Positions 1,952 through 51,002 of a stretch of 64,000 nt of DNA are shown here, piece by piece. Every line of letters starts with the position of its first letter. Within the stretch, counting starts at the first letter, position 1. The position numbers were made by a program, and so were the translations under genes. The stretch covers positions 46,500,001 to 46,564,000 of the forward strand of contig OX597831.1 in the NCBI GenBank assembly GCA_951406725.2, in the 5' to 3' direction. The notes below the pieces were generated by a model. That model had not been told where the DNA came from, ran no database searches, and saw nothing but the letters and a program-made list of their open reading frames with translations. Source of the stretch: Octopus vulgaris (taxonomy: Eukaryota).

Positions 1952-4656
1952 GCTCAAAAATATATTTTCTTTCATTGTTCACGGCTTCTTGACAACGTTC
2001 CACAAGTTTGTCAATACCTTGACAGTAGAAATCAACCGTCTAGACTTCGAGAATTCACCGAGTCACGTTTTTAGTTTCGTGGCGTTATTGAAAGAGACGC
2101 TTCATAGACTGTTGGAAAGTGACAGAAAAGGTGATAATTTCATGAATCTGTATCAAGAGAATACAGTGGGTGTGGTAGAATCCTCTAACCAAGCACTTGT
2201 ATAGTATACACAGTCAAATTAGCAACTTGGGGGCGAGTGTTGCTGTATTGAAGCACGCTATGTCGTCAGTGTCTGATCGTTTCAGCTGGATTGGCTTATT
2301 GAGCAGGTGCATTTGCTGAACGCAAAGCTCTACATTGACCATGTAATTATTTTGAAGCATTTCGTAGTAGATTAGCCCCTCTCAATCCCACCAAACGCAG
2401 ATCATTGGCTTTTGCGGATGCAGCTCCGACTTTGCTCGAGGTATTGCTTTCTTATAGGGGCAACCATTCTTTCCTCTGATTCATACTGACGGAAAATCAC
2501 TAATTTTCATCGCTCAGCAAAGAAATCTCTGTTTGTGTTCACAAGTAGCCTGGCCTTGAGCGAATAAAATGGTGCCGATAGAGGAGCGTGTGACTCTCAT
2601 GCACCGAGGTTTTGGACTTTACCCATCAAGTAAATGTTACGATCAACGGCATTATAAGAGAATCTCATCTACTGCGCCAGTTTCCTCGTAGATTGGCACG
2701 GACCCTCGTGAATGAATTCGATCAATCGACCCTCATTGAACTAAACAAGTCGTCTGGAATGCAGAGTCTTTGAGGTCGAATTTCTCATTCTTTAAGAGTG
2801 AAAATCATTTCTGAGTAGTTTTTTTCAGTAACAACGCCTTCTTCATACAAAGCACAAATATCTCGAGCGGCTTTGCAGCTCTGGAAACATGATTGAGAGC
2901 AAAGAGAAGCAGGTGTTGAAAATGTTCATTGTTTTCTATATAACACTCTATAATCATGTCTGAAAAGAAGTAAAATTTAATCAAATTTCAAAAATGATAA
3001 ACAAAAGTTGAAGAGGAAGAACATAGCTACAAAAACAAAAACAAAACACTACCACAAAAATATTTTTCGTGCTAATTCAAACATCAGAAAGAAACAAACG
3101 AATTTTTCTGCCAACCAAAAGTATATGTTTGGCCATGGGAGGAAAGGTGGATGCACCACGCAGGATTCAATATTTTTTATTAAGTAAAATTTAATTAGAG
3201 GACAGAAGCCGTGTTATTAGTAGTAGAAAAGATAGCGAGGAGAAGAACCACAAGTGTGTATAGGAGAAGTGGTAGCATGATGGTGAGTGAATTATTGTAA
3301 TACAGCTAAATAGCTTTCTTTTGTATGCGATTTAGGAGATTTATTAGTAGGAACAGCAATGCCGAAGATATGGGAATAATACTCTACTGTAAATTATTCT
3401 TGTGCTTTGCAAAACGTCAGCAACTAATGAGGGATCAGAGCTGATGCAATTTCCAGAAGAGCAGGTTTTAATTTTGTAATGCGGTTTTGGCAATGCTGTG
3501 TATATACGTAAACTTACTAAGCGAGATGGTCAGAGATTGCTGCGTCAAGTACTCATTGCATCTTTATATGTCTTAAAATTATGCATTATTCTTATAAAGA
3601 GAGAGTAATGGGGAATTAAACTGTGATGTTATGACTTCATTTGAATTGTTTTTAAATCTCTATTCGTTGAAACAATGAGAATTTCGTATCTATTAATATT
3701 ATGCCATAAGTCTCCTTTTCTCTGTTTGTCCGTCTTCAAAGAGAGATAACTGACCTTATTGAGTTTACCTCCCTTGGTTACTATATATTAAAATAGAGTT
3801 ACCTGTTATATGACAGCTGAAGTTGGAAAGTCTACTACGCATATAGGCCGTCCCCAATGGTCTTCCATTCAAGACCATCCCGACATCCTAGAAGAAATCT
3901 TGAATTACACTACTTAATTTGATCTTTCCGTATTAAGGCGGTAGGCTGTGATCTGTTGTTGCAGTCTTGTTGTTTTCAATAAGTCAAGTAACCATATACT
4001 GGAGATTAGCAATTGTCGAAAATGCAATCAGTAGGAAAGTCCAAGTTCATTCACTTTGAGGGGTGTGTAGGTTAAAGTTTTTCGCCGAGCGTGAGAAAAG
4101 AGGAAACTGTGCTGTTGTTACTTTTGTGAGAGGCTAATATGGATTTCAACTCAACTACTGCATCCTATTCAAAACGAGATGCCTTAAATTTCTACTTATA
4201 TTTTATGAATATTTTAAGTGTGTCAACTTGCTGGAGACAGATTGTTGTATAATCGAATGCTGACTTCCGACAGGAAAATGCATTATGACGATAAATAATC
4301 AGCTGCTAAGTGCTGTGAGCACACTACCGCATTTCACCCATTTTAACGGATATTAACATAAGAAAGAAACAAGAGAATCTCTATAAATGTTGTTCAAACT
4401 GTTAGAAATAGCTCTCAAATCTCTATCAAGTAACATCCATTTATCCTTAAAAGGTGTAAAAGAATGTCTGTGACAATGTGGACTTAAAAATTTAGAAAGC
4501 TCATAGTCGGAATGTTTATGATCACAAATTCTCCCCATCAAAGTCACCCTGACCCACAAAGCAACAACAGTATATATAAACACTCTGCATAATAAACATA
4601 CATAACGGCGGTGCATCAGCATGGCCGCAACTCTGAGCTGAAAAAAAAGTACATAA

Positions 4657-4818: not shown

Positions 4819-4881
4819 TATATATATATATATATATATAAATATATGAAAGAATGGAGTTGAACGACTAGTTAACAAATA

Positions 4882-4978
4882 TCCTTTATTCTCGACATAT
4901 GTTTCGAAGGCTGTATATTCCTAATTCCGAAGGAATAAGGAGTACATTATGCAGATTTCTCATCAGGAAAATCAAGGA
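4882..4978 (-). ncRNA. Type I hammerhead ribozyme, mirror copy in the left palindrome arm
   Basis: Exact reverse complement of 5094-5190. Confidence 0.8.
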
Positions 4979-5093
4979 ACTTATATCGACATCAAAATGC
5001 ACAAAAACTTTTAGCTGACCGCTCTCAAGGAGCCATGGCTCCTTGAGAGCGGTCAGCTAAAAGTTTTTTGTGCATTTTGATGTCGATATAAGT

Positions 5094-5190
5094 TCCTTGA
5101 TTTTCCTGATGAGAAATCTGCATAATGTACTCCTTATTCCTTCGGAATTAGGAATATACAGCCTTCGAAACATATGTCGAGAATAAAGGA
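5094..5190 (+). ncRNA. Type I hammerhead ribozyme (minimal palindromic stem III, long stem II)
   Basis: Stem I tccttgattttc/gagaataaagga; CTGATGA 5106-5112; stem II gaa...attcc-ttc-ggaat...ttc; GAAAC-ATAT-GTC; predicted cut after 5178. Confidence 0.8.
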
Positions 5191-5390
5191 TATTTGTTAA
5201 CTAGTCGTTCAACTCCATTCTTTCATATACTTATAATTTTAAAATAAACATACAAATTTCCGCACGAAAACACGTAGTCTATGCCCTAGGGACGTAGCTT
5301 CAACCGTGTTCTTTCTGATGTGAATTTGCTACCCAGGTATCGGTTATCTTTCGAATTATTCTTAATAAGATAATTCATTCAATTACTCAA

Positions 5391-7029: not shown

Positions 7030-8268
7030 TTATAATATCAAAGACGATGTCTTTATGTGTTCGTGTATTACTTATACATTCGAAAACTGCTGCACCGATC
7101 ATAATGAAATTTGGGACACAAAATCGAAGCCTAGGGAGAAGGGTAATGCTGTGTGTTTTATACAATATTATACAAAATTACTGAATCGATCCTTATGATA
7201 TTTGAAACTTAGATTCAATGCATAAGGGCGGGTATAATGCAATATGTTTGGTTTGAATTTCAGATGGCTTAAAGGGAGCAGAACCACCCATGAAAATTCA
7301 TAAATTTTCGATGTTGATGAAATTTCAACCATGGGTAATTGACACACATCAAGAAGTATTCTCAAAGTTTCCACTTCACATGAGGATTCTAATACGCCCT
7401 AATGGGGGCCTTAACTCCCAAATTTTAGTCATTTCTTTTATGATCCTAAACTAAGTCAAAAGTACTGAATGGATCTTTACGAAATTTGGAAATTATATTC
7501 TATGCATAAGGGCCACAACTCCCATGACAATTCATATATTTATGCTTTTGATGAAATTTTATCCATAGATATTAGATACAAATGAAGTAATATTTATAAA
7601 ATTTCATCTTCTTACAAGTTAGAAAGACCCCTTCATGGGGACTTAACACCCACAATTTTGTCATTTTATCTAAGCAAAGACGAATAGTTGTACGCTTGGA
7701 AGCTGTGGGGTCATCCGAGCATAGAAGATGAGCATTATTTGTAATTCAATGGCACAACAGTGTAAGAGTTTACTTTGACATACACTTAGATTGTAATTTC
7801 TGCAATGTGCTGCATAAATTGTCAAGTAAATGAGAGGCATCTTGACCTCCACTGATTCAGTTGCAAAGTGTTGAGTAAAGTTATTTGATTGCAGACCTCC
7901 TTTCAGTCTTTTTATTATCACTCGGTCACACATAGTCCCCAGATGGTAACATTGATTTCAAGGCATTCCAAGATGAGTGACTGGTTATTCAAAGACATTT
8001 ATAGATTTTAAATTCATTCTGTCCAGTTACGTACCAGTATAGTGGTCATTTGCAAACTCCAACTTTCATTTCTCCTTAGCCCTTACGTCACACAGTTATT
8101 AATGTTGATTTCAGTTGGGTCACGCCCTTCCAATTGCTATAGATTCATAATGCATCTTACGGTTGTGCCTGTCACCCGGATGGTGAGGAATCCTTCATTG
8201 GGAGTGGTAACGACTAGGGTAGGGTTACTGACTGCTTATTGTGATCATTCATCTTTTGGTTTCCTGTA
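7030..8268 (+). mobile_element. Non-autonomous Helitron-like element; 7399-8268 is homologous (inverted) to 17776-18617
   Basis: Long high-identity match, including near-identical short ORFs 7670-7933(-) and 18119-18388(+); Helitron-type 5' region. Confidence 0.7.
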
Positions 8269-13176: not shown

Positions 13177-15495
13177 CCTCCCCCTTTTGAGATTGGTTTT
13201 GTCCTTTTATTTATTCATTTATTTATTCTTTAATTTTTATCAAAATTTTATTTCCTTGGTGAGAAACTGGCTTACTCTTTCTCTTGGCGTTAATTTCCAT
13301 AATTTCTGTATGTTTTCTGTTCCTGTTCGACCTACGTCTCGGTTCTGCTTTCACTTGTGGTTCTGGGACCTCGAACATGTCATACCATATATCCATTGGC
13401 TCATCTCGCCTTTCTTGATTTTTGGTATATATTTTCTTTAATTGATTAAAATGCCTTTTATGTTCATATTTTGGTCCTTTGACCATGTACATCACATTAC
13501 TCAAACATCCTGTTATATTACATTGTTCCCAGTCCTGTTTTCCGTTTTTATACATTTTAAAATACACTTCGTCACTTGTGTTAAAATATGTCGTTCTACA
13601 TCCTGAATTTTGTATTTTCCGTTTCCTATTCAGCAACAATTTGTTAAACACAGAACGAATCTTTCTGGAGAACATCAAATCTTAGGGTGACCTACCCGAC
13701 TCTGTATTTGGATTCAGTGTTATTCTGTACACCTGTAAGAACTTTGTCATATTTCTATCTTCAAAAGGTTCCCGTCTGGTCTTTCTTAAGGCTGTCTTGA
13801 ATATGTCGTCGAATCTTTCCGCTAACCCATTTGAGCTTGGATGGCATGGCGGAGTTAACACATGCTTCATCTGGATTGACTTACAGATTTTAAAAAAATC
13901 CCTCGCCATGAATTGTGTGCCATTATCTGACACGATCGTATCTGATACTCCATAACGAGCAAACAATTCCCCCGAGAAGTCAATAGTCACATTTGTGGTT
14001 GGCCTTGAACATTTACACACTTCAGGCCATTTCGAATCGCTATCCACCACGATGATATAATAAAAGCCATTTATTGATCCTGCAAAATCCACATGCTGTC
14101 TAGACCATGCTGAATCCATTTTTGGCCACAGCTGTATCTGCACTGGGGGTGCCATACCAGTCTCTCAATTTGCTTGTCCGTATTCGGCCAATACACGTAA
14201 CTCCTTATGAGGCTTTTCATCCGGGCAATCACCGGATGTCCTACATGGAAGCCTTTCAATATTCTATTTTGCAGTACTTCAGGTACTACCACCCTTTGTG
14301 ATAATACATCATCACATACTGAATAATGCTTTGAACCTGCGTTCCACTAATTTTTCGTATTATTTCCCAACAGTATTTTTAAATCTTGTTTATGGACATA
14401 TATTTTCCCGATTTTAACTTAATTTCTTTTAGCGTTACAGGCAGATCACATACTACATTGCACAAAATGTTCTTCAGTTCCATTTCTAGTTTTAACGATG
14501 CAAACACCGTGTCTTCAAAAGGTTCTTTATATTTTGGAATTAGCCTAGACAACCCGTCTGCGTGTCCCATTTTCTTTAATGGCAAAAACTTCATCTAAAA
14601 ATCATAGCTGAACAGGGTAGTCCCCCAGCGCTCTAAACGGTTTGCTGAATGCGTGGGGATACCCCTTTTCGAACCGAAAATAGATAGTAACGGTCGGTGA
14701 TCAGTCTGCAGTGTAAACGTCCTATCTTGTAGGAATTTAGGGAATTTCTTTACTGCGAAAATTAATAATAAAGCCTCCTTTTCGATCTTGCTGTAGTTTT
14801 TTCTGCTACTAGGATGACTCTTGATGCATGTGCAATAGCTTCGATTTTACCATAATTAAATTTATGCAATATCACAGCTCCTATACCATATTCACTGGCA
14901 TCCGATGCCACTATTATTTTCAGGTTTGGGTCGAAATGAATTAACGATAACTGAGGTTAACGTCTGTTTTAATTCCTCGAATGCTTTCTGACATTCATTT
15001 GTCCAGTCCCATTCCGTGTCTTTCTTTAACAAATTGTAATGTTTTTTTGTTAGTGGGAGCAGGCATATTTTTTATCGCATCATCCGTTTTTATCGATCAT
15101 CTGTCGCAAGTACTTTATTTTTGTTTAAAAAATCGCATTTATTTACGCTTACTTTAAATCAATAGTCGCTTATTCTTTTAAAAACATTTTTTATATGTTC
15201 AGTATACTGGTCCCTCGATTCACTTTTGATCAATATGTCATCCAAGTATGGGACCGCAAACTTACAGTCTGCTAGTAAAGTGTCCATCACTTGCTGAAAT
15301 ATTACTGGTGTGACATTAACCCCAAATGGCAGTCATAAAACGGTACAGACCTTGATGAGTATTAATTGTTAATAATTTAGCACATTCCTAATCTACACGT
15401 AATTGGAGGCAGGCTTCTGACAAATCCAGCTTGGAAAAACTTTTTGCCACCATTGCACTTAGCAAATATTTCTTCTGGCCTTGGAAGCGGATGTT
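12964..15495 (-). mobile_element. Ty3/Gypsy LTR retrotransposon, 5'-truncated with decayed pol (RT-RNaseH-integrase)
   Basis: LPFGV and YLDD (~15240); DASEYGIGAV, TDHRPL and HADGLSRL; integrase HVGHP, HVDFAG, IVSDNGTQF, SNGLAERF; multiple stops and frameshifts. Confidence 0.95.
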
Positions 15496-17611: not shown

Positions 17612-18621
17612 CTAGCAGAGATACCCGGCGTTGCCCGGTTACATTCAATTAAAGAATTAGACTTTTCTCTTATATTTTCTGAATGAACTGGAATATCTAT
17701 GTTTCGAATTTCATCAAAATTGCAGATGAGGGTTATTTCCCTCTTTACACACCCTAAAAAAATTGTAATCGTGCCACATGGAAACCAAAAGACGAATGAT
17801 CACTATAAGCAGTCAGTTAACCTACCCTAGTCGTAACCACTCCCAATGTAGGATTCCTCACCATCCAGGTGACAGGCACAGCCGTAAGATGCATTACGAA
17901 TATATAGCAATTGGAAGGGCGTGACCCAACTGAAATCAACATTAACAACTGTGTTATGTGAGGGCTTAGGAGAAATTAAAGTGTCACCTCTGGAGTTTGC
18001 AAATGACCACTATACTGATACGTAACTGGACAGAATGAATTTAAAATCTAAAAATGTCTTTGAATAACCAGTCACTCATCTGGGAAGGCCTTGTAATCAA
18101 TGTTACCATCTGGGGACTATGTGTGACCGAGTGATAATAAAAAGACTGAAAGGAGGTCTGCAATCAAATAACTTTACTCAACACTTTGCAACTGAACCAG
18201 TGGAGACAAAGATGCCTCTCATTTACTTAACAATTTATGCAGCACATTGCAGAAATCACAATGTAAGTGTATGTCAAAGTAAACTCTTACACTGTTGTAC
18301 CATTGAATTAGAAATAATGCCCAACTTTTATGCTCGGGTAACCCTACAGCTTCCAAGAGCACAACTGTATTCGTTTTTGCTTAGATAAAATGACAAAATT
18401 GTGGGTGTTAAGTCCCCATGAAGGGGTCTTTCTAACTTTGTAAGAAGATCAAATTTTATAAATATTACTTCCTTTGTGTCTAATATCTATGGTTAAAATT
18501 TCATCAACAGCAAAAATATATGAATTGTCATGGGGGTTATGGCCCTTATGCTTAGACTATAATTTCCAAATTTCATAAAGATCCATTCAGTACTTTTGAG
18601 TTAAGGCTCCCATTAGTGTTA

Positions 18622-18652: not shown

Positions 18653-18749
18653 AGATGCACACACTCACACACACACACAAAGATAAATTGATAGATACAA
18701 CTGAGTGGGCAAACAAAAATATGAGACATAGCCTAGCGCTTTTTTATGT

Positions 18750-18938
18750 TGATAAGCCTAGTACTTATTCTATTAGTTTGTTCTTGTGAAACCAGTAAGT
18801 TTTGTGGATATAAATAAATGAACAGCAGTTGTGAAGCAGTGATGAGGGCGAAACACAGAGACAAAGACACACACACATACACTTACATATATACATCTAT
18901 ATACGATTGATTTGTTTCAGTTCCTGTCTACGAAATCC
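18750..18938 (-). mobile_element. Diverged SINE family B, target of the RTE insertion
   Basis: aagcctagtacttattcta...tttcagttcc-gtctac-aaatcc matches family B on minus. Confidence 0.65.
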
Positions 18939-21236
18939 TTATATATTGTTGTTGGCATCCTTTTTGTCTAGGAGACAATGGAGTTGCGCATAAAATAATT
19001 TAGTCCGGCTTTTTCATTTCATGTCCTAATACATCTCCTGCTATGGCTGTGTAGTTCTATCTTGGACAAACACTCCCTCTGGCAGGTGCCGCAAATGTAG
19101 CGAAGACTTTGCCTGGCTGGTTGTAATGTCATACTTTCTTGTTGACGTCTTTTCTTGTCTTTCCATTTCTCCTCTCCATCTATATCACTCCTTTGTGTTC
19201 CCTCTTTTACGGTACGTCGCCAATCTCCACGGTTGCTGGCAACTGCTTCCCAGTTGGAAATATTGATGTTGCAGGCATTCATGTCCCTTTTGCAAACATC
19301 CTTGTATCGTAAGAACGGTCTTCCCACAGACCTAGTGCCCCTAGCAAGCTCTCCGTTGAGTATGTCCTTGGGGATTCTGCCATCTTCCATACGGCTAACA
19401 TGTCCAAGCCATCTCATACGTCTTTGTGTGAGGAGTGTAAACATGCTCGGTATTCCTGCTTGCTTGAGGACATCTTTGTTGGGGACATGATTCTGCCATT
19501 TGATGCGAAGGATTTTCCGGAGGCAAATAGCATCTCCTTGATCAGGACGCTTCTGATTTTGGTCTTGGCACGCAGACGCGAGAGATTGAACAGTTTCCCA
19601 TCACTTCTACTGTGCAGAAACACTCCATCATTTGATGTCACAAAGGCATGTGACAGCAGCAGCGAGAAGAAGATGCCAAATAATGTAGGAGCAAGGACAT
19701 AACCTTGCTTTACCCCATTTTTCATTTGGAAGGTGGCTGATGTTGAACTATTGTGCTGTATGGTGCCTTGCATATCATCATGGAAAGATTCGATGATCTT
19801 CAGCTTTGGTGGACATCCGAGTTTTTGGAGCAGGATGAAGAGGCCTTTTCTACTTACCAAGTCAAAGGCCTTTGTCAGATCAATGAAGGCCATATATAAT
19901 GGCATTTTCTGCTCTCTGGACTTCTGAAGTTGGCGTATGGAGAATATCATGTCAATAGTTGATCTGTTTCTTCTAAAGCCACACTGCGATTCTGGATAAA
20001 TTCGAGAAGCAAGCAGTTGCAGCCTGGACAGGATAATGCGAGCAGAGGCATTTCCAACAGTGCTTAGAAGAGATAGTGCACGGTAATTGTTACAATCACC
20101 AGGGTTACCTTTGTTTTTGTAAAGCGTAATAATGTTAGCATCCCGCATATCCCGAGGGACTCTACCCGCTTCCCAGCATAGACACAGAAGCTCATGAATG
20201 TGCCGAAGCAGGATGGTGTTTTTGCCGGTTTTGATGATCTCTAAGGGGATGCCGTCTTTTCCCGGAGCCTTGTTACTTGCTAGGGAGTCAATAGCCTTGG
20301 TGAGCTCTGCTATAGATGGCAGACTGTCAAGTTCACACATGACTGGCAAGATCTTGACACCCTCGATTGCAGCCTCAGCTACCATGGTCTCTCGTGAGTA
20401 GAGATCCTGGTAGTACTCCACCCATCTATCCATTTGCTTGCTTTGGTCCTTGATGAGATCCCTAGTAGTTGATTTCAGAGGGGCTGACTTGGTTGCGGAT
20501 GGACCGAGGGCCTTCTTCAAACCGGCATACATCCCACGGGTGTCGCCACTGTCAACAGCTGACTGGATACTCTGACAGATTTCCTGCCAATACCTATTTG
20601 GACAGCGTCTGGCAGTCAGTTGGGTTTTATTTCTTGCCTTTCTGAGTTCTTCGAGTGACTTTATAGAAGAATCACTCTTGTATTACATCAGAGCTGCACG
20701 CTTTGTTTCGATAACTGTTTCCAGCTCTGAGGGCCCAGCAATGAACAAAATCTGGGTTTTGCCTTTCTCTCATGCCGAAAGTATCTACTGATGTGGTATA
20801 CAAAGCTTCCATGATATAATTCCACCTACTTTCAGCAGTGATGGTTGGGCAGCTACTGAGGGAAACTTTGATAGAAACAGCAAAACATTGTCCCAGTGTA
20901 GGGTCGGAGGTTCAGGCAGTGTTAATGCGTGGTCGGCCCATTTTCTTGGAGTGATGGACTTTTTAGGCAGAATCCACACCCTGCTTCTTATTAGTGAATG
21001 ATCTGTGTCACAATCCACGCTGTGGTAACTACGAGTCAGTTGAACAGACTTCAGAAACGGTATTCGTGTAATGATGAGATCCAGCTGATGCCAGTGGTGA
21101 GATCTTGGCTGTCTCCAAGATGCCTTGTGGGATGTCTTGTTGGCAAAAAATGTGTTAGTGATGCACAGGTTATGGTATGGGCAAAATTCAAGTAGTCTCT
21201 GGCCATTGTCATTCATGTTGTCAATACCAAAACACG
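18939..21236 (-). mobile_element. RTE-clade (BovB-like) LINE, 5'-truncated, internally deleted, ~60 bp TSD
   Basis: APE C-terminus (NDNGQRLL, WHQLD, DTDH); RT (PESQCGFR, FIDLTKAFD, GVKQG); C-terminal RWLGHVSRM..RIPK and C2H2-like motif; (CAA)n tail; TSD 18878-18938 / 21237-21301. Confidence 0.95.
19414..20532 (-). pseudogene. RTE reverse transcriptase ORF fragment lacking the catalytic DD
   Basis: 372 aa ORF with RT motifs up to EMLFA, then an out-of-frame fusion to C-terminal sequence. Confidence 0.9.
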
Positions 21237-21300
21237 TACACTTACATATATACATACATATATATACGATCGATTTGTTTCAGTTCCTGTCTACGAAATC

Positions 21301-30186: not shown

Positions 30187-31649
30187 TATATATATATATA
30201 TATATATATGAGCGATATGAAATCCAGGCAGCTACTAAATTTCTCTGAGTAAAATGCCATGACTAGTTCCTTCCGATGGTGCGTTTTGTTTTGGTAATCT
30301 ACCTTCAGCTTTCATCTGATGTTCCAATTTAATTCTTGGCTACTTAGATTGTAAATTACAATATTTTCAATATCATACTATATATATATATACATATATA
30401 TATTTACATATATACATATATATATATTATACATACATACATATATGTATATACATGTGTGCGTGTGTGTGTATTTGTATGCATGTTTGTATTCATGTAG
30501 ATATACATGTAAGTTTATGCGTGCGTTTTGATATTTAAACGTTTCATAAGCTAAACGAAGTATCAAACTTTGGTTAGATACTTTTTGGAACGCCACCATT
30601 TCACTCTTTCTACTTCTGTCTATTTTTTCCCTTTCTCTCTCTAATTTTCTCATTCTTTTTTATTTCCTTTTCTTCTTTCCTCCTTTTTTCTTTCTCCACC
30701 CCCACTTGATATTCTCTGATTTTTTCCATTTCCTTCTTTCGCATGTAACAACTAACTTATATAATTATACACCAAGAGATTTTGTGCGCGTGCGTATGTG
30801 TGCGTGCATACATATATATGCATTTGTAAATATTTGAAGTTTTGCCTATATATGTCTGTATATATATGTGGCCATGTATCTACGTCTGTATGTTTAGTGT
30901 ATATACGTATAATACAGATTGTTTGGTATGTGTATATATTGCTAAATGTATATGCAATCTAGCTTGAAAATTTTTTTAAGGGATATATCTTTTAATTTAT
31001 TAATTTATTATTATTTTTACAGCTAAATATTTACCCCTGGGTATTCATGCCTTTTCCCTTCTTTATAAGATAATTTTGATTTAAGGTTTTCTTCGATTTT
31101 TATATGATTTTAAACCGCAATTTGTTATTTCATGCAACCGGTTATTGAAAAGACTGTTAGTCAAACGGACCAATGAAACAAAACCATTTTAAAATGTGCA
31201 TCTATCAAAGTAATTGTTTTTCTACCTATAACTTTATCTCGCTCCCTTCTAAACAAAACTATCCGACGAACGAGAACGTGAAACTCCGAGTAATATTTTT
31301 TGTGATATTTTTGCTGCTTTTTTTAATAAAGCATATTACTCAAGTTCTGGTATTCGAGCACTATTTTTTTCCACCTTGTTTCACATTTATGTACTTACTC
31401 TTGTATATATATTATATATAATAATGGTATTTTTATATAAGCTTAAAGTTTATGGTAATTACCGTGCAATGACTAAGGAAAATAGCCTAATAAACAAGCT
31501 AAAGCAATTTAACAAGCTAAAGGCTAAACTATAGACGTCACTAAAGTGACAGAGGGTGCTAAGTAGTACCAGCATTGCTAGAAATAGCCACAGATAGCAC
31601 CATTTTAAAGACTGACAAGGGAGACAAACTCCCTACAACAGCGGATATA

Positions 31650-31881
31650 TATTTCTTTACTGCCCTCAAGGGGCTAAACATAGAGGGGACAAACAAGGGC
31701 AGACAAAGGGATTAAGTCGATTACATCGACCCAGTGCGAAACTGGTACTTTATTTATCGACCCCGAAAGGATGAAAGGCAAAGTCGACCTCGGCGGAATT
31801 TGAACTCAGAACGTAACGGCAGACGAAATACGGCTACGCATTTCGCCCGGCATACTAACGATTCTGCCAGCTCGCCGCCTT
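31650..31881 (-). mobile_element. SINE family A with 10 bp TSD agcggatata
   Basis: Full body; TSD 31640-31649 / 31882-31891. Confidence 0.93.
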
Positions 31882-31882
31882 A

Positions 31883-31959
31883 GCGGATATAGCCAGATCA
31901 CCGATGATTTCGAATTTTGATGTTAGAGCATCTCACTTCTCATCGGTGGCTCTTACCGC
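31883..31959 (-). ncRNA. Type I hammerhead ribozyme candidate (U4C core variant, AUC cleavage triplet)
   Basis: Minus strand: gcgg-taag-agcca CCGATGA gaa..gatg-ctctaa-catc..ttc GAA-ATCA-tcgg-TGAT-C tggct-atat-ccgc; stems I, II and III all pair. Confidence 0.7.
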
Positions 31960-34900
31960 GCCTAGGGTTTAAGTCAATTCACCTTGTCAGTTTATAAGAT
32001 AACCGTTGAACTCATACGCTTATTTCAAAAACGGTAAAAAGATAAATATTCTGATATTATATCGTTTTCTCATTCGGAGTCAAGTTTTACTTATTTTCTT
32101 TCGAAGAGAAGGTAATATTACTAAATGAAAAGATCATCTTCTGTGGTATTTAGTATACCTTTAAACGCCATTGCTGTCCAAACTCATAACACTTCCAAGT
32201 TATTACTTTCAGCTCAATTATACAAAATATCAAAGTTTGTAATCATCCTCTACACTTTTTGTATTGAAGCTTTAGCTTGATTTAATTTTGGGCGATTAAT
32301 TTACCAATGTTTCCTATTTAGGAAGAAATATGTGTCCAAAATATTTTCTTTAATGGCATATCAATTCTAGAAAATTCTTGGTTCTTGAGATTATATCCCG
32401 TTCGTAGTTACATATTGATGATTATAATAAATGAAAATAAAAGATGCACTTGTAAATAGATGATGGTCATTGCCTCCTACAATGGCTATTTAGATTCTTT
32501 CATACGTATTTTCACCAATCCTCATTCCAATAAGTCTTAAATTAGTGGCGGTAGACAAAACGATTCTGTTAAAGGAGTACAAACACTTGTGGTTTTTAAA
32601 TGCAATCGTTAAAAAATATATAGTTGATAAATAACGTTGTACGTTTAGTTGTCTTTGTTCGATAAAACAACAGCACCCTCAAGAACAGCAAATATAAGGG
32701 CATTACTGCATCTACTCCTATTCATCCACCCCTAAATCACCACACGGGTTTCGAAGAGTAGACATGTATCCTTTACTTTAAGGATATAAAATCGTACTGC
32801 TTCGTCCTTTACCATCACTAAGAAACAAACTGAATTGTTTTAAAAAAAGGACGAAATATTGACTTTGGACAATGCTCACTTTATTTTGGTGATTTCACGA
32901 AAATTTAGAAACTTGAGGACGTTTAAACTGGTAGAAAGGTTTATGTAATTTCAAGTATTTAGCAGATTTCGACAACAGTATGGAGCATTTCTCAGTTCCA
33001 CTGATATTCGTAAGTAAATTGTCAGCGATAGCAAAACACAAGACATTCATCTTCGAATTCGAATGATCACTCTGCATTGCTAATATATAGGCACGAGATT
33101 GCTGATTATAATTTAATAACAAACAGTCAAATCTAATTCACATAGAAACAATATCCTACTCTTGTAGCAAAATTCAACTTGAAAGCTGCTCTCTGTTCAG
33201 AATTGTATATTCTCTTGAAGTCATATCATTCACCCAAAACAATTAGAATTCCTCTTAACTTAGGAGAGGATACAGTTTGCTAGATGTCTTGCAAACAACT
33301 TGCACATGCAAATGCTACCAGTCAAGAACTCCGCATAACGGAAGTCAGCAAGTGTATGAGATCATCAGGAGAGAATGTGCGCCGTTTCGGGGCCTACCTC
33401 TCGACGTCATCAATGCGCACCGGCTCCCCTCACTGAAATGAGGCCCCGCTTGCTAGATGAACTGATTATTAAATAAAGCTCTCTATTTCTTTAGCCATAT
33501 GAGAATGCCAAGAGAGAAGGCAATGACATGCCTTTGTAGTAGGGTAATTCAAACCACATTCATGTAATAGTAAAGAGGTTCGTTTTCAGATATGTTTATT
33601 TGATAAATCAGTATTGTTTATTTTTTGCATGTGTGTATTATCGAAATAATACATTTTGTTCGTAATAATCACACACACGCACACACACACGTGCGCGCAA
33701 TACGTATCAGTCGTATTTCTTGAGATAATTTATTTTGTATTTAAATTTAAAAGTTCACTCCACTTTGTTTCTACATGTTCACCTCTAGGTTGTATATTGT
33801 CTCAGCATATTTTGTGAGCGATAATCAATAATCACATATATTGCGTTGAATAAGTTTCAGTTGCATAATCATACACTATCTTAAATGTAGTATTGAGTGA
33901 CTCTATTTACCAAGAAAGAAAGGAGGCTGCGATTTGTTATATGTAGTTTTAAAAAAGCTATATTATTCATAGTTGAAAGACTGTCATCTGCTGTTAGTAA
34001 CATCGAAGTTACTGTGAAGACTTCAATAGAAAGAATGGCAGGGCAATTAACTGGGAAGAGAAAGGATGACAAGGTCAATTCATATAACAAACCAAGGAAG
34101 TTGAAGTGAAAACTGCGAGTTGCAGCTGAGATATGGAAACCTGGAATGAAAAACTGAATTACTAATTATAGACGATTAGAACAAGCAATTAGAATGAAAT
34201 TGATACAACTCAGTCACTCAGCAAACGTAGAATCTATGGAAAAGTAACGAAAGTACGAACAGTCTCTAAGCAAGTGAAGTATGCTAGCACAAGAAGAAAG
34301 ATAAACGTATAAGCGTAAACATGATTATGTTAGTAAAAAAGCGCGTTGGCGTTTCTGAATTTGAACTGAGAGAAAAGTAATATGAACGTAAACTAGAAAT
34401 GATCATACTAAATTACATTTACGGGATTTTGGGGGCTCTTTCCATGGATTATTGAAGAAATTAAATCAAACACGATCGTTGAAGACAGAAGGAACAATAT
34501 CATAAGATCACAGATATCACAATCACATATAGAATTCAAGGGTATAAATAGAAACCGAAAAAATTGAGAAAAATCTGGACCTTACCAGAGAGACAAGAGA
34601 TTGTGGAGCATAAGTGTGAAAAGTAACCCATGAAAATGGGTGCCCTTAGCACAATAGCCAGACTGTTTCTAAAAAGGCTGAAGGATATTGAAATTGAGAC
34701 AAGTATGGCCAACCAACAAAAAACTGCTACGACGTACTCTGCAAGAATCCTAAATGTGATACAATTTAAGGAAACGTTTGTCACTAAACCTGAAGATAAC
34801 CAGTTTGCTAATTATAATGATAAAACAAATCAGTTTGGCGATTTCACCTGGGAGTAGGCAAGTGTTCGGGTCTAGGGAAAACCTTGACTGTAATAATATA

Positions 34901-50436: not shown

Positions 50437-50688
50437 ACATACATACATACATACATACATACATACACTTAGGGGTGGATAAGTAGTCAGCTAATCAGTT
50501 TATTAATTAGCTAGTTATATATATATATCTGTAGAAGCTCCTTCTATAAAATAAATTAATTTACTCTGCTATGTATTGAGTACCTTATTTACTGTGGTTA
50601 ACCCCGACTCAACCCGGGACCTACATATATATATATATATATATAGGTGAGAAAGTTGGTGTGTGAAAGCACGTGGTTGAATATATAG

Positions 50689-50918
50689 AAAATAGTAAAA
50701 AGTGAAAAAACTACAGAAGGCTTGTTTTAAAAGGTTAAAAAATATATATTTGAGTCATTATGTCAGAAGAATGTTATAAATTTTTTTCTTACACTGACAT
50801 AGTTTTTGATGTCACTGTATGAAAAAATTTATAACATTCTTCTGACATAATGACTCAAATATATATTTTTTAACCTTTTAAAACAAGCCTTCTGTAGTTT
50901 TTTCACTTTTTACTATTT

Positions 50919-50919
<1 letters not shown>
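50689..50919. repeat. Inverted repeat with ~99 bp near-perfect arms, probable inverted pLTR
   Basis: 50689-50787 is the reverse complement of 50822-50919; imperfect symmetry continues into the spacer. Confidence 0.92.

Positions 50920-51002
<83 letters not shown>

Follow-up and report, generated by a model that had tools for sequence, protein, structure and literature searches.

A type I hammerhead in a dispersed octopus repeat whose catalytic core is predicted to be sealed by its own helix III

Introduction

A hammerhead ribozyme motif had been proposed on the minus strand at positions 31883-31959 of a 64,000-nt stretch of Octopus vulgaris DNA (contig OX597831.1; hereafter the window), which raises the question of whether such a motif is able to cut itself and to what kind of element it belongs. 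The window is eukaryotic and AT-rich, and is rich in microsatellites and SINE copies. The reading that we prefer, and to which we give a chance just short of even, sees here a dispersed repeat with a type I hammerhead that would be off as a monomer and would likely need two tandem copies in order to cut; the repeat itself is likely a non-LTR retrozyme that descends from the terminal repeat of a Penelope-like element.

Layout of the motif and its chance expectation

The motif is made up of the following parts (window coordinates).

31883..31959, minus strand: whole hammerhead motif, with distal stem I GCGG/CCGC beyond a 4x4 internal loop (sequence and folding)
31959-31956, minus strand: distal stem I 5' strand GCGG, followed by a 4-nt loop strand (read directly)
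31947..31951, minus strand: stem I 5' strand AGCCA (sequence and descriptor)
31940..31946, minus strand: catalytic core C3-A9, CCGAUGA, with the U4C variant at 31945 (sequence; no family substitution among those listed)
31912..31939, minus strand: helix II, with a GAA..UUC base, a GAUG/CAUC top, and a CUCUAA loop (read directly)
31909..31911, minus strand: G12-A13-A14, GAA (sequence)
31897..31908, minus strand: helix III AUCA/UGAU with its UCGG loop (31904-31901), a 12-nt quasi-palindrome (sequence and folding)
31895..31896, minus strand: predicted cleavage site, after C17 (31896) of the AUC triplet (hammerhead numbering)
31891..31895, minus strand: stem I 3' strand UGGCU (sequence)
3' of UGGCU, minus strand: AUAU loop strand, then distal stem I CCGC at 31886-31883 (read directly)

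On the minus strand the full layout of a type I hammerhead is confirmed, its activity being a matter of prediction: all stems named in the original prediction pair as it had described them, and the type I consensus (core, G12 A13 A14, A15.1-U16.1, H17) is found at every point except U4C. The three helices are all present, with helix I open, and comprise 5(+4), 3(+4), and 4 bp for I, II, and III, respectively. When searched with a strict descriptor (core CYGANGA, stem I of at least 5, stem II of at least 3, and stem III of at least 4), the real window gave one match and 300 block-wise dinucleotide shuffles gave none; looser descriptors did hit shuffles (9/300 with a relaxed core and 54/300 with loose stems). 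Rfam returned no hammerhead match at the gathering score over the whole window, or at E<=10 within 31400-32200, and the other hammerhead of the window (4.9/5.1 kb) is likewise below the gathering score. Two further candidates were discarded, namely an Rfam match to TEG147 (E 0.075, 22.9 versus 56.1 bits), which is a look-alike hairpin, and a hammerhead on the plus strand, where CCGAUGA stems from the pairing described in the next section, neither GAAA nor a helix III follows, and the descriptors find nothing.

Predicted folding of single and tandem copies

The original prediction did not include the complementarity between the core and helix III, in which CACCGAUGA (31948-31940) pairs with UCAUCGGUG (31907-31899) through 9 Watson-Crick bp and C3-A9 is buried. 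The minimum-energy fold is a rod with the core paired to helix III and the UCGG loop, not a hammerhead, and the active fold lies 9.9, 7.3, 5.8, and 6.6 kcal/mol above this core-sequestered (locked) fold in four energy sets at 37 C, values that are nearest-neighbour predictions with tertiary contacts, coaxial stacking, and Mg outside the model. The gap becomes larger at 15-20 C, is unaffected by the majority letters of the repeat family, and compares with 1.6 kcal/mol for the other hammerhead of the window. UCGG gives the largest gap among 256 tetraloops (the median is 0.7 kcal/mol, and 160 of the 256 give 1 or less), and having C4 instead of U4 adds 2.2 kcal/mol to the lock. In folds of the growing chain, the lock is present by nucleotide 55-61, ahead of stem I closure. 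By computation, the active fold is not predicted to be accessible in the monomer, and one copy on its own would be expected to adopt an off state in which the core is sealed by its own helix III. The U4C change is a known natural variant of a viroid, for which lowered activity in vitro is reported in PMC3088659.

The 12 nt of helix III are also self-complementary over their whole length, with a two-copy duplex of -14.3 kcal/mol. Under Turner 2004 parameters, an equally strong self-duplex occurs in 18 of the 256 loops and, with C4 in place, only 3 of the 256 combine such a duplex with a gap of at least 5 kcal/mol; the same parameters make the dimer less favoured with C4 than with U4 (4.7 versus 0.3 kcal/mol in total). 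If a tandem unit is folded with the cores kept free, helix III forms between the copies. In energy per ribozyme, the resulting double hammerhead exceeds two locked monomers by 0.3-2.7 kcal/mol, the best two-molecule fold by 4.3-5.9 kcal/mol, and the best tandem fold by 4.4-7.8 kcal/mol. In these models dimerisation would close most of the gap to the locked monomers, yet without a clear win over the best dimer fold, so that cutting would have to be helped by kinetics, by tertiary contacts, or by a chaperone.

The repeat family and its variation

Four sequencing runs of 24 were compared with 31883-33560 (the side free of the SINE described below) at 80% likeness, and the evidence for a family comes from the contigs of the DNA-type runs X1 and X6 (in the raw-read DNA run X21, one read matched). 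Over 31883-32050, summed contig depth is 2966-4013 in X1 and 265-489 in X6, compared with 88-206 and about 9, respectively, on the flank; overall, the repeat (31883 to about 32031) is about 14-54 times as deep as the flank. Depth is lower near the edge of the compared stretch, and family depth stops near 32030-32037, with single-copy DNA beyond. The majority letter at 31970 is carried by 45 contigs in X1 and 49 contigs in X6. The family consists of dozens of copies at least, depth not being equal to copy number. Depth in X1 and X6 and the contig counts thus reveal a multi-copy family with a type I hammerhead, which is one criterion for non-LTR retrozymes. It had been proposed that this is a second ribozyme-bearing family unrelated to the 5.1 kb one, and repeat depth and alignment both support its distinctness: its motif aligns locally with the 4.9/5.1 kb hammerhead over 8 nt at best.

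None of the 16 substitutions listed for 31883-32031 hits the 39 positions of core, stem I, basal helix II, and helix III (hypergeometric P 0.006), nor does any of the five listed within the 77-nt motif (P 0.025), counts that rest on 40 of 63 substitution records, seven of the 23 others being G>A in X1, which would bring back U4. In one run or another, every listed substitution attains a share of about 27% or more, and no two-sided compensatory stem changes are found among those listed. The contigs suggest that C4 is the family majority letter. Because orthologous contigs differ at about 0.5%, the X1 and X6 runs carry no deep conservation signal. At 31923, 31934, and 31936 the copy at 31883-31959 has letters other than those of the family majority, which makes its helix II weaker by 5.1 kcal/mol; helix II with the majority letters has 10 bp plus an internal loop, and the strengthening by these three letters is matched by 5 of 400 random trios. 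Loop II (CUCUAA) varies within the family, with a substitution at 31923 and 1-nt deletions at 31923-31925. Three upstream majority letters were also considered as covariation within the rod and were rejected, since they give no gain across the SINE (107 of 400 random trios were as good).

Traces of tandem arrangement appear in a few contigs: one X6 contig jumps from 32030 back to 31884, with a spacer whose length the contig does not give, and 31888-31955 occurs twice, 6 letters apart, in one contig of X1 and in one of X6 (a 74-nt tandem). Within the 64-kb window there is one unit only, and no head-to-tail copies of it were found. The motif is covered by X11, a possibly-RNA run, in which its ratio to the neighbouring high-copy repeat resembles that in the DNA runs, so expression cannot be inferred from this run. 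The exact family pattern had no match in metagenome contigs. Three looser scans for the core plus its antisense in phage and metagenome contigs, one of them covering 27 of 64 parts, yielded 137 loci (95 distinct), none of which has stems II>=3, I>=4, and III>=4.

SINE insertion and extent of the unit

The motif is flanked by a SINE and by further parts of the repeat unit.

31650..31881, minus strand: SINE, 90-95% identical to other window copies by self-BLAST, outside the ribozyme family
31882..31891, strand not assigned: first copy of the SINE target-site duplication, TATATCCGCT, 10 bp, which copies the distal stem I strand
31640..31649, strand not assigned: second copy of the target-site duplication, TATATCCGCT, 10 bp
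31960..32031, minus strand: upstream arm of the repeat unit (depth bins; a contig piece ending at 32031 and a joint at 32030)
31590..31639, minus strand: downstream arm, with which stem I becomes a long rod if the SINE is taken out (inverted repeat I6)
31430..31589, minus strand: probable remainder of the unit, with an inferred far end (pairing of 32001-32037 with 31400-31459)

That a SINE had inserted just downstream and duplicated the distal stem I strand was also part of the original prediction, and it holds: the element is 95% identical to another copy in the window, is bounded by a 10-bp target-site duplication, and lies 14 nt past the predicted cut. By eye it has what we take to be tRNA-type A and B boxes, and it resembles the SINEs of octopuses; ARAGORN found no tRNA gene. 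With the SINE removed in silico, 31620-31611 pairs perfectly with 31991-31982 over 10 bp within the rod, and in pairing with the upstream arm, the downstream arm (31640-31590) outdoes 997 of 1000 shuffled arms. Farther out, 32001-32037 pairs with 31400-31459 (at about 31430-31445) and beats 300 of 300 shuffles, this being one of five windows tried and AT-rich. The family had been expected to extend to ~31420; its continuation past the SINE is supported by this pairing of the arms, and the weaker end-to-end pairing takes it to about 31430, whereas the upstream extension to about 32031 was missing from that prediction. If the inferred far end holds, the unit is about 360 nt long, with a GC content of 0.36-0.41. 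We could not detect a convincing target-site duplication flanking the unit, and no Pfam match to RT or GIY-YIG was found in 35 flanking ORFs or 15 read-through frames, a search that a heavily decayed ORF could escape. This copy is probably an inactive solo unit, decayed and interrupted by the SINE, because its helix II is weakened and the SINE adjoins the cut site.

Comparison with known hammerhead systems and a possible mechanism

The octopus unit is similar to the metazoan non-LTR retrozymes of coral, Mytilus, and axolotl in that a type I hammerhead lies in what would be a non-coding, low-GC, self-paired repeat of ~360 nt; PMC7229834 gives about 170-400 nt and GC <45% for non-LTR retrozymes, and 350-390 bp for the units of mussels. 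Dispersed solo retrozyme copies are known as well, according to 10.64898/2026.07.22.740005. Most metazoan retrozyme circles, some mussel circles excepted, are predicted in PMC7229834 to leave their hammerhead free, whereas the octopus hammerhead is blocked by its own helix III and has a U4C core. In addition, tandem arrays and circular RNA belong to metazoan retrozymes, whereas the octopus family is known from a DNA motif and contigs.

Blocks of hammerhead activity in other systems differ from that in the octopus motif, where the blocking sequence is itself part of the motif and is synthesised ahead of the cut site. Viroids and plant retrozymes have their blocker outside the ribozyme, so that they can cut while being transcribed, and the block in satRPV is a loop-loop pseudoknot. 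The satRPV/sBYDV satellite RNA reportedly has an alternative structure that attenuates self-cleavage, as worded in a reference title. What the hammerheads of viroids and plant LTR retrozymes share with the octopus motif is a block by complementary sequence (PMC7229834). Double hammerheads (newt satellite 2, ASBVd, and the pLTRs of Penelope-like elements) are alike in that palindromic helix III/loop III segments pair between tandem copies and the monomer is poor (PMC4209133, PMC6466107, PMC6765202, and PMC6155905), and satRPV is listed as requiring a double hammerhead in PMC6466107. In newt satellite 2, ASBVd, and the pLTR motifs, however, the monomer is off since helix III has 0-2 bp, whereas the octopus motif has 4 bp and is predicted to be off through core pairing. 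Natural U4C hammerheads, such as the viroid variant in PMC3088659, have C4 in common with the octopus motif, in which C4 also perfects the loop III pair. The features of a Penelope-like pLTR were not found locally, as there is no Pfam match to an adjoining RT plus GIY-YIG ORF, no extra base after A9, and a helix III of 4 bp.

Under the preferred reading of a retrozyme that is off as a monomer, the folding models suggest that the lock would form as helix III is transcribed and would dominate in the monomer, and that the helix III segments of two copies joined head to tail may pair with each other in one transcript, which would free both cores as a double hammerhead. By analogy with retrozyme biology, tandem loci might be transcribed, cutting after C17 might release units of about 360 nt, these units might be ligated to circles that remain locked, and such circles might be reverse-transcribed in trans by a Penelope-like element. 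A more specific version, which we consider possible but rather unlikely, is that of a natural copy-counting ribozyme, in which the 12-nt segment would serve both as antisense lock and as dimer helix, co-adapted with U4C, so that monomers and circles would be sealed and tandem transcripts would be cut.

Alternative explanations

It is also conceivable, if on the unlikely side, that this is a hammerhead-derived family that no longer cuts and has spread as a passive hairpin, its core having been kept by base-pairing or by young age. The active fold is never the lowest in energy, in monomer or dimer, and it is the lack of a clear energetic win in the dimer that lets such a family keep its weight as an explanation; the lower in vitro activity of U4C (PMC3088659) and the similarity of X11, possibly RNA, to the DNA runs point the same way, and we infer that the perfect match between core and helix III could have come from template switching. 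On the other hand, the unpaired letters of the rod (G12-A13-A14-A15.1, and A-U-C at the cut) are unchanged among the substitutions listed, a weak argument based on few positions; helix III remains self-complementary, which is needless for a plain hairpin, again a weak point; and variation in helix II and the flanks argues against a uniformly young family. The opposite view, advanced in the original prediction, is that of a type I hammerhead that is efficient as a monomer thanks to a stabilising contact between the stem I internal loop and loop II. The three helices and the 4x4 internal loop are indeed present, the family variant at 31954 yields a bulge strand containing UGA, similar to the Schistosoma bulge, and the energy models leave out tertiary contacts, coaxial stacking, and Mg. 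However, a gap of 5.8-9.9 kcal/mol, compared with 1.6 for the other window hammerhead and at most 1 in 160 of 256 control loops, the U4C change, the early appearance of the lock in growing-chain folds, and a loop II that is both variable and distant make this improbable, and the claim of an efficient monomer is not supported.

Whether the carrier is a retrozyme at all has to be weighed separately, as it may instead be an orphan pLTR of a Penelope-like element, in which the ribozyme logic could be the same. Most metazoan hammerheads of Penelope-like elements are single dispersed motifs with a long helix II and a palindromic helix III (PMC4209133), retrozymes and pLTRs are related (10.64898/2026.07.22.740005), and the window has one unit only. 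Nevertheless, the lack of an RT or GIY-YIG Pfam match in the 35 ORFs and 15 read-through frames, the end of family depth at about 32031 with single-copy DNA after it, and a helix III of full 4 bp with G10.1 directly after A9, unlike the minimal motifs of Penelope-like elements, leave an orphan pLTR with only a slight chance. Least probable by far is that an ordinary hairpin fits the hammerhead descriptor by chance: stems I and II come with any rod, the core is complementary to the arm facing it, and Rfam has no hammerhead match, yet chance would still have to supply CNGANGA, GAAA, a helix III of 4 bp that includes U16.1, and a single base ahead of stem I, and neither the 300 shuffles nor the 95 distinct core-plus-antisense matches complete the three stems.

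Significance

The bare motif is ordinary, since hammerheads are common in animal repeats; the lock is not. No cephalopod hammerhead was found by title in the literature, where the supplements of hammerhead surveys may list such motifs; a search for a CCGAUGA hammerhead core gave nothing related, and none of the titles found describes a helix III sealing its own core. The main text of an Octopus repeat annotation (PMC13282606) mentions no ribozyme, hammerhead, or retrozyme. What stops free metazoan retrozyme circles from cutting is left open in PMC7229834. If true, the copy-counting lock would be a built-in answer to how animal retrozyme circles avoid self-cutting and possibly a natural monomer/multimer switch, and the family offers a 77-nt system in which this question could be probed by point changes in loop III. 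For motif scans, the lesson is that a perfect descriptor match may be thermodynamically shut.

Surroundings of the locus

Several other repeats and coding remnants are present in the window. At 4837-5235, a 400-bp inverted duplication (99% perfect) carries two type I hammerheads on opposite strands (4972-4888 and 5100-5184), with a canonical core and a palindromic 8-nt helix III, as in inverted Penelope terminal repeats; no ORF was seen in the translations of its flanks. On the other side of the locus, words resembling a decayed GIY-YIG tail by eye at 32850-33150 (plus strand) were rejected as a nearby Penelope ORF, having no Pfam match and single-copy depth. A very high-copy repeat with subfamilies and hairpins occupies 33283-33500 (depth up to 362,000 versus 88 on the flank in X1), its copy in the window being diverged at many positions; a suspected minimal hammerhead at about 33370-33425 (minus strand) was discarded, as the family majority letter at 33407 breaks its core. 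A patch of raised depth at 32331-32442 (2195 in X1 and 302 in X6) amid single-copy DNA is a fragment of another repeat. Broken LINE-type ORFs lie at 18700-21300 (minus strand), with a match to RVT_1 (E 5e-21) at 19414-20679 and a weak one to an endonuclease at 20788-21279, and an integrase core fragment with an interrupting stop lies at 13226-14164 (minus strand; rve, E 1e-10). Finally, 7452-8264 and 17780-18603 form an 820-bp inverted pair (92% identical), and near-perfect palindromes are found at 50681-50927 and 1736-1951 (94% and 90%, respectively).
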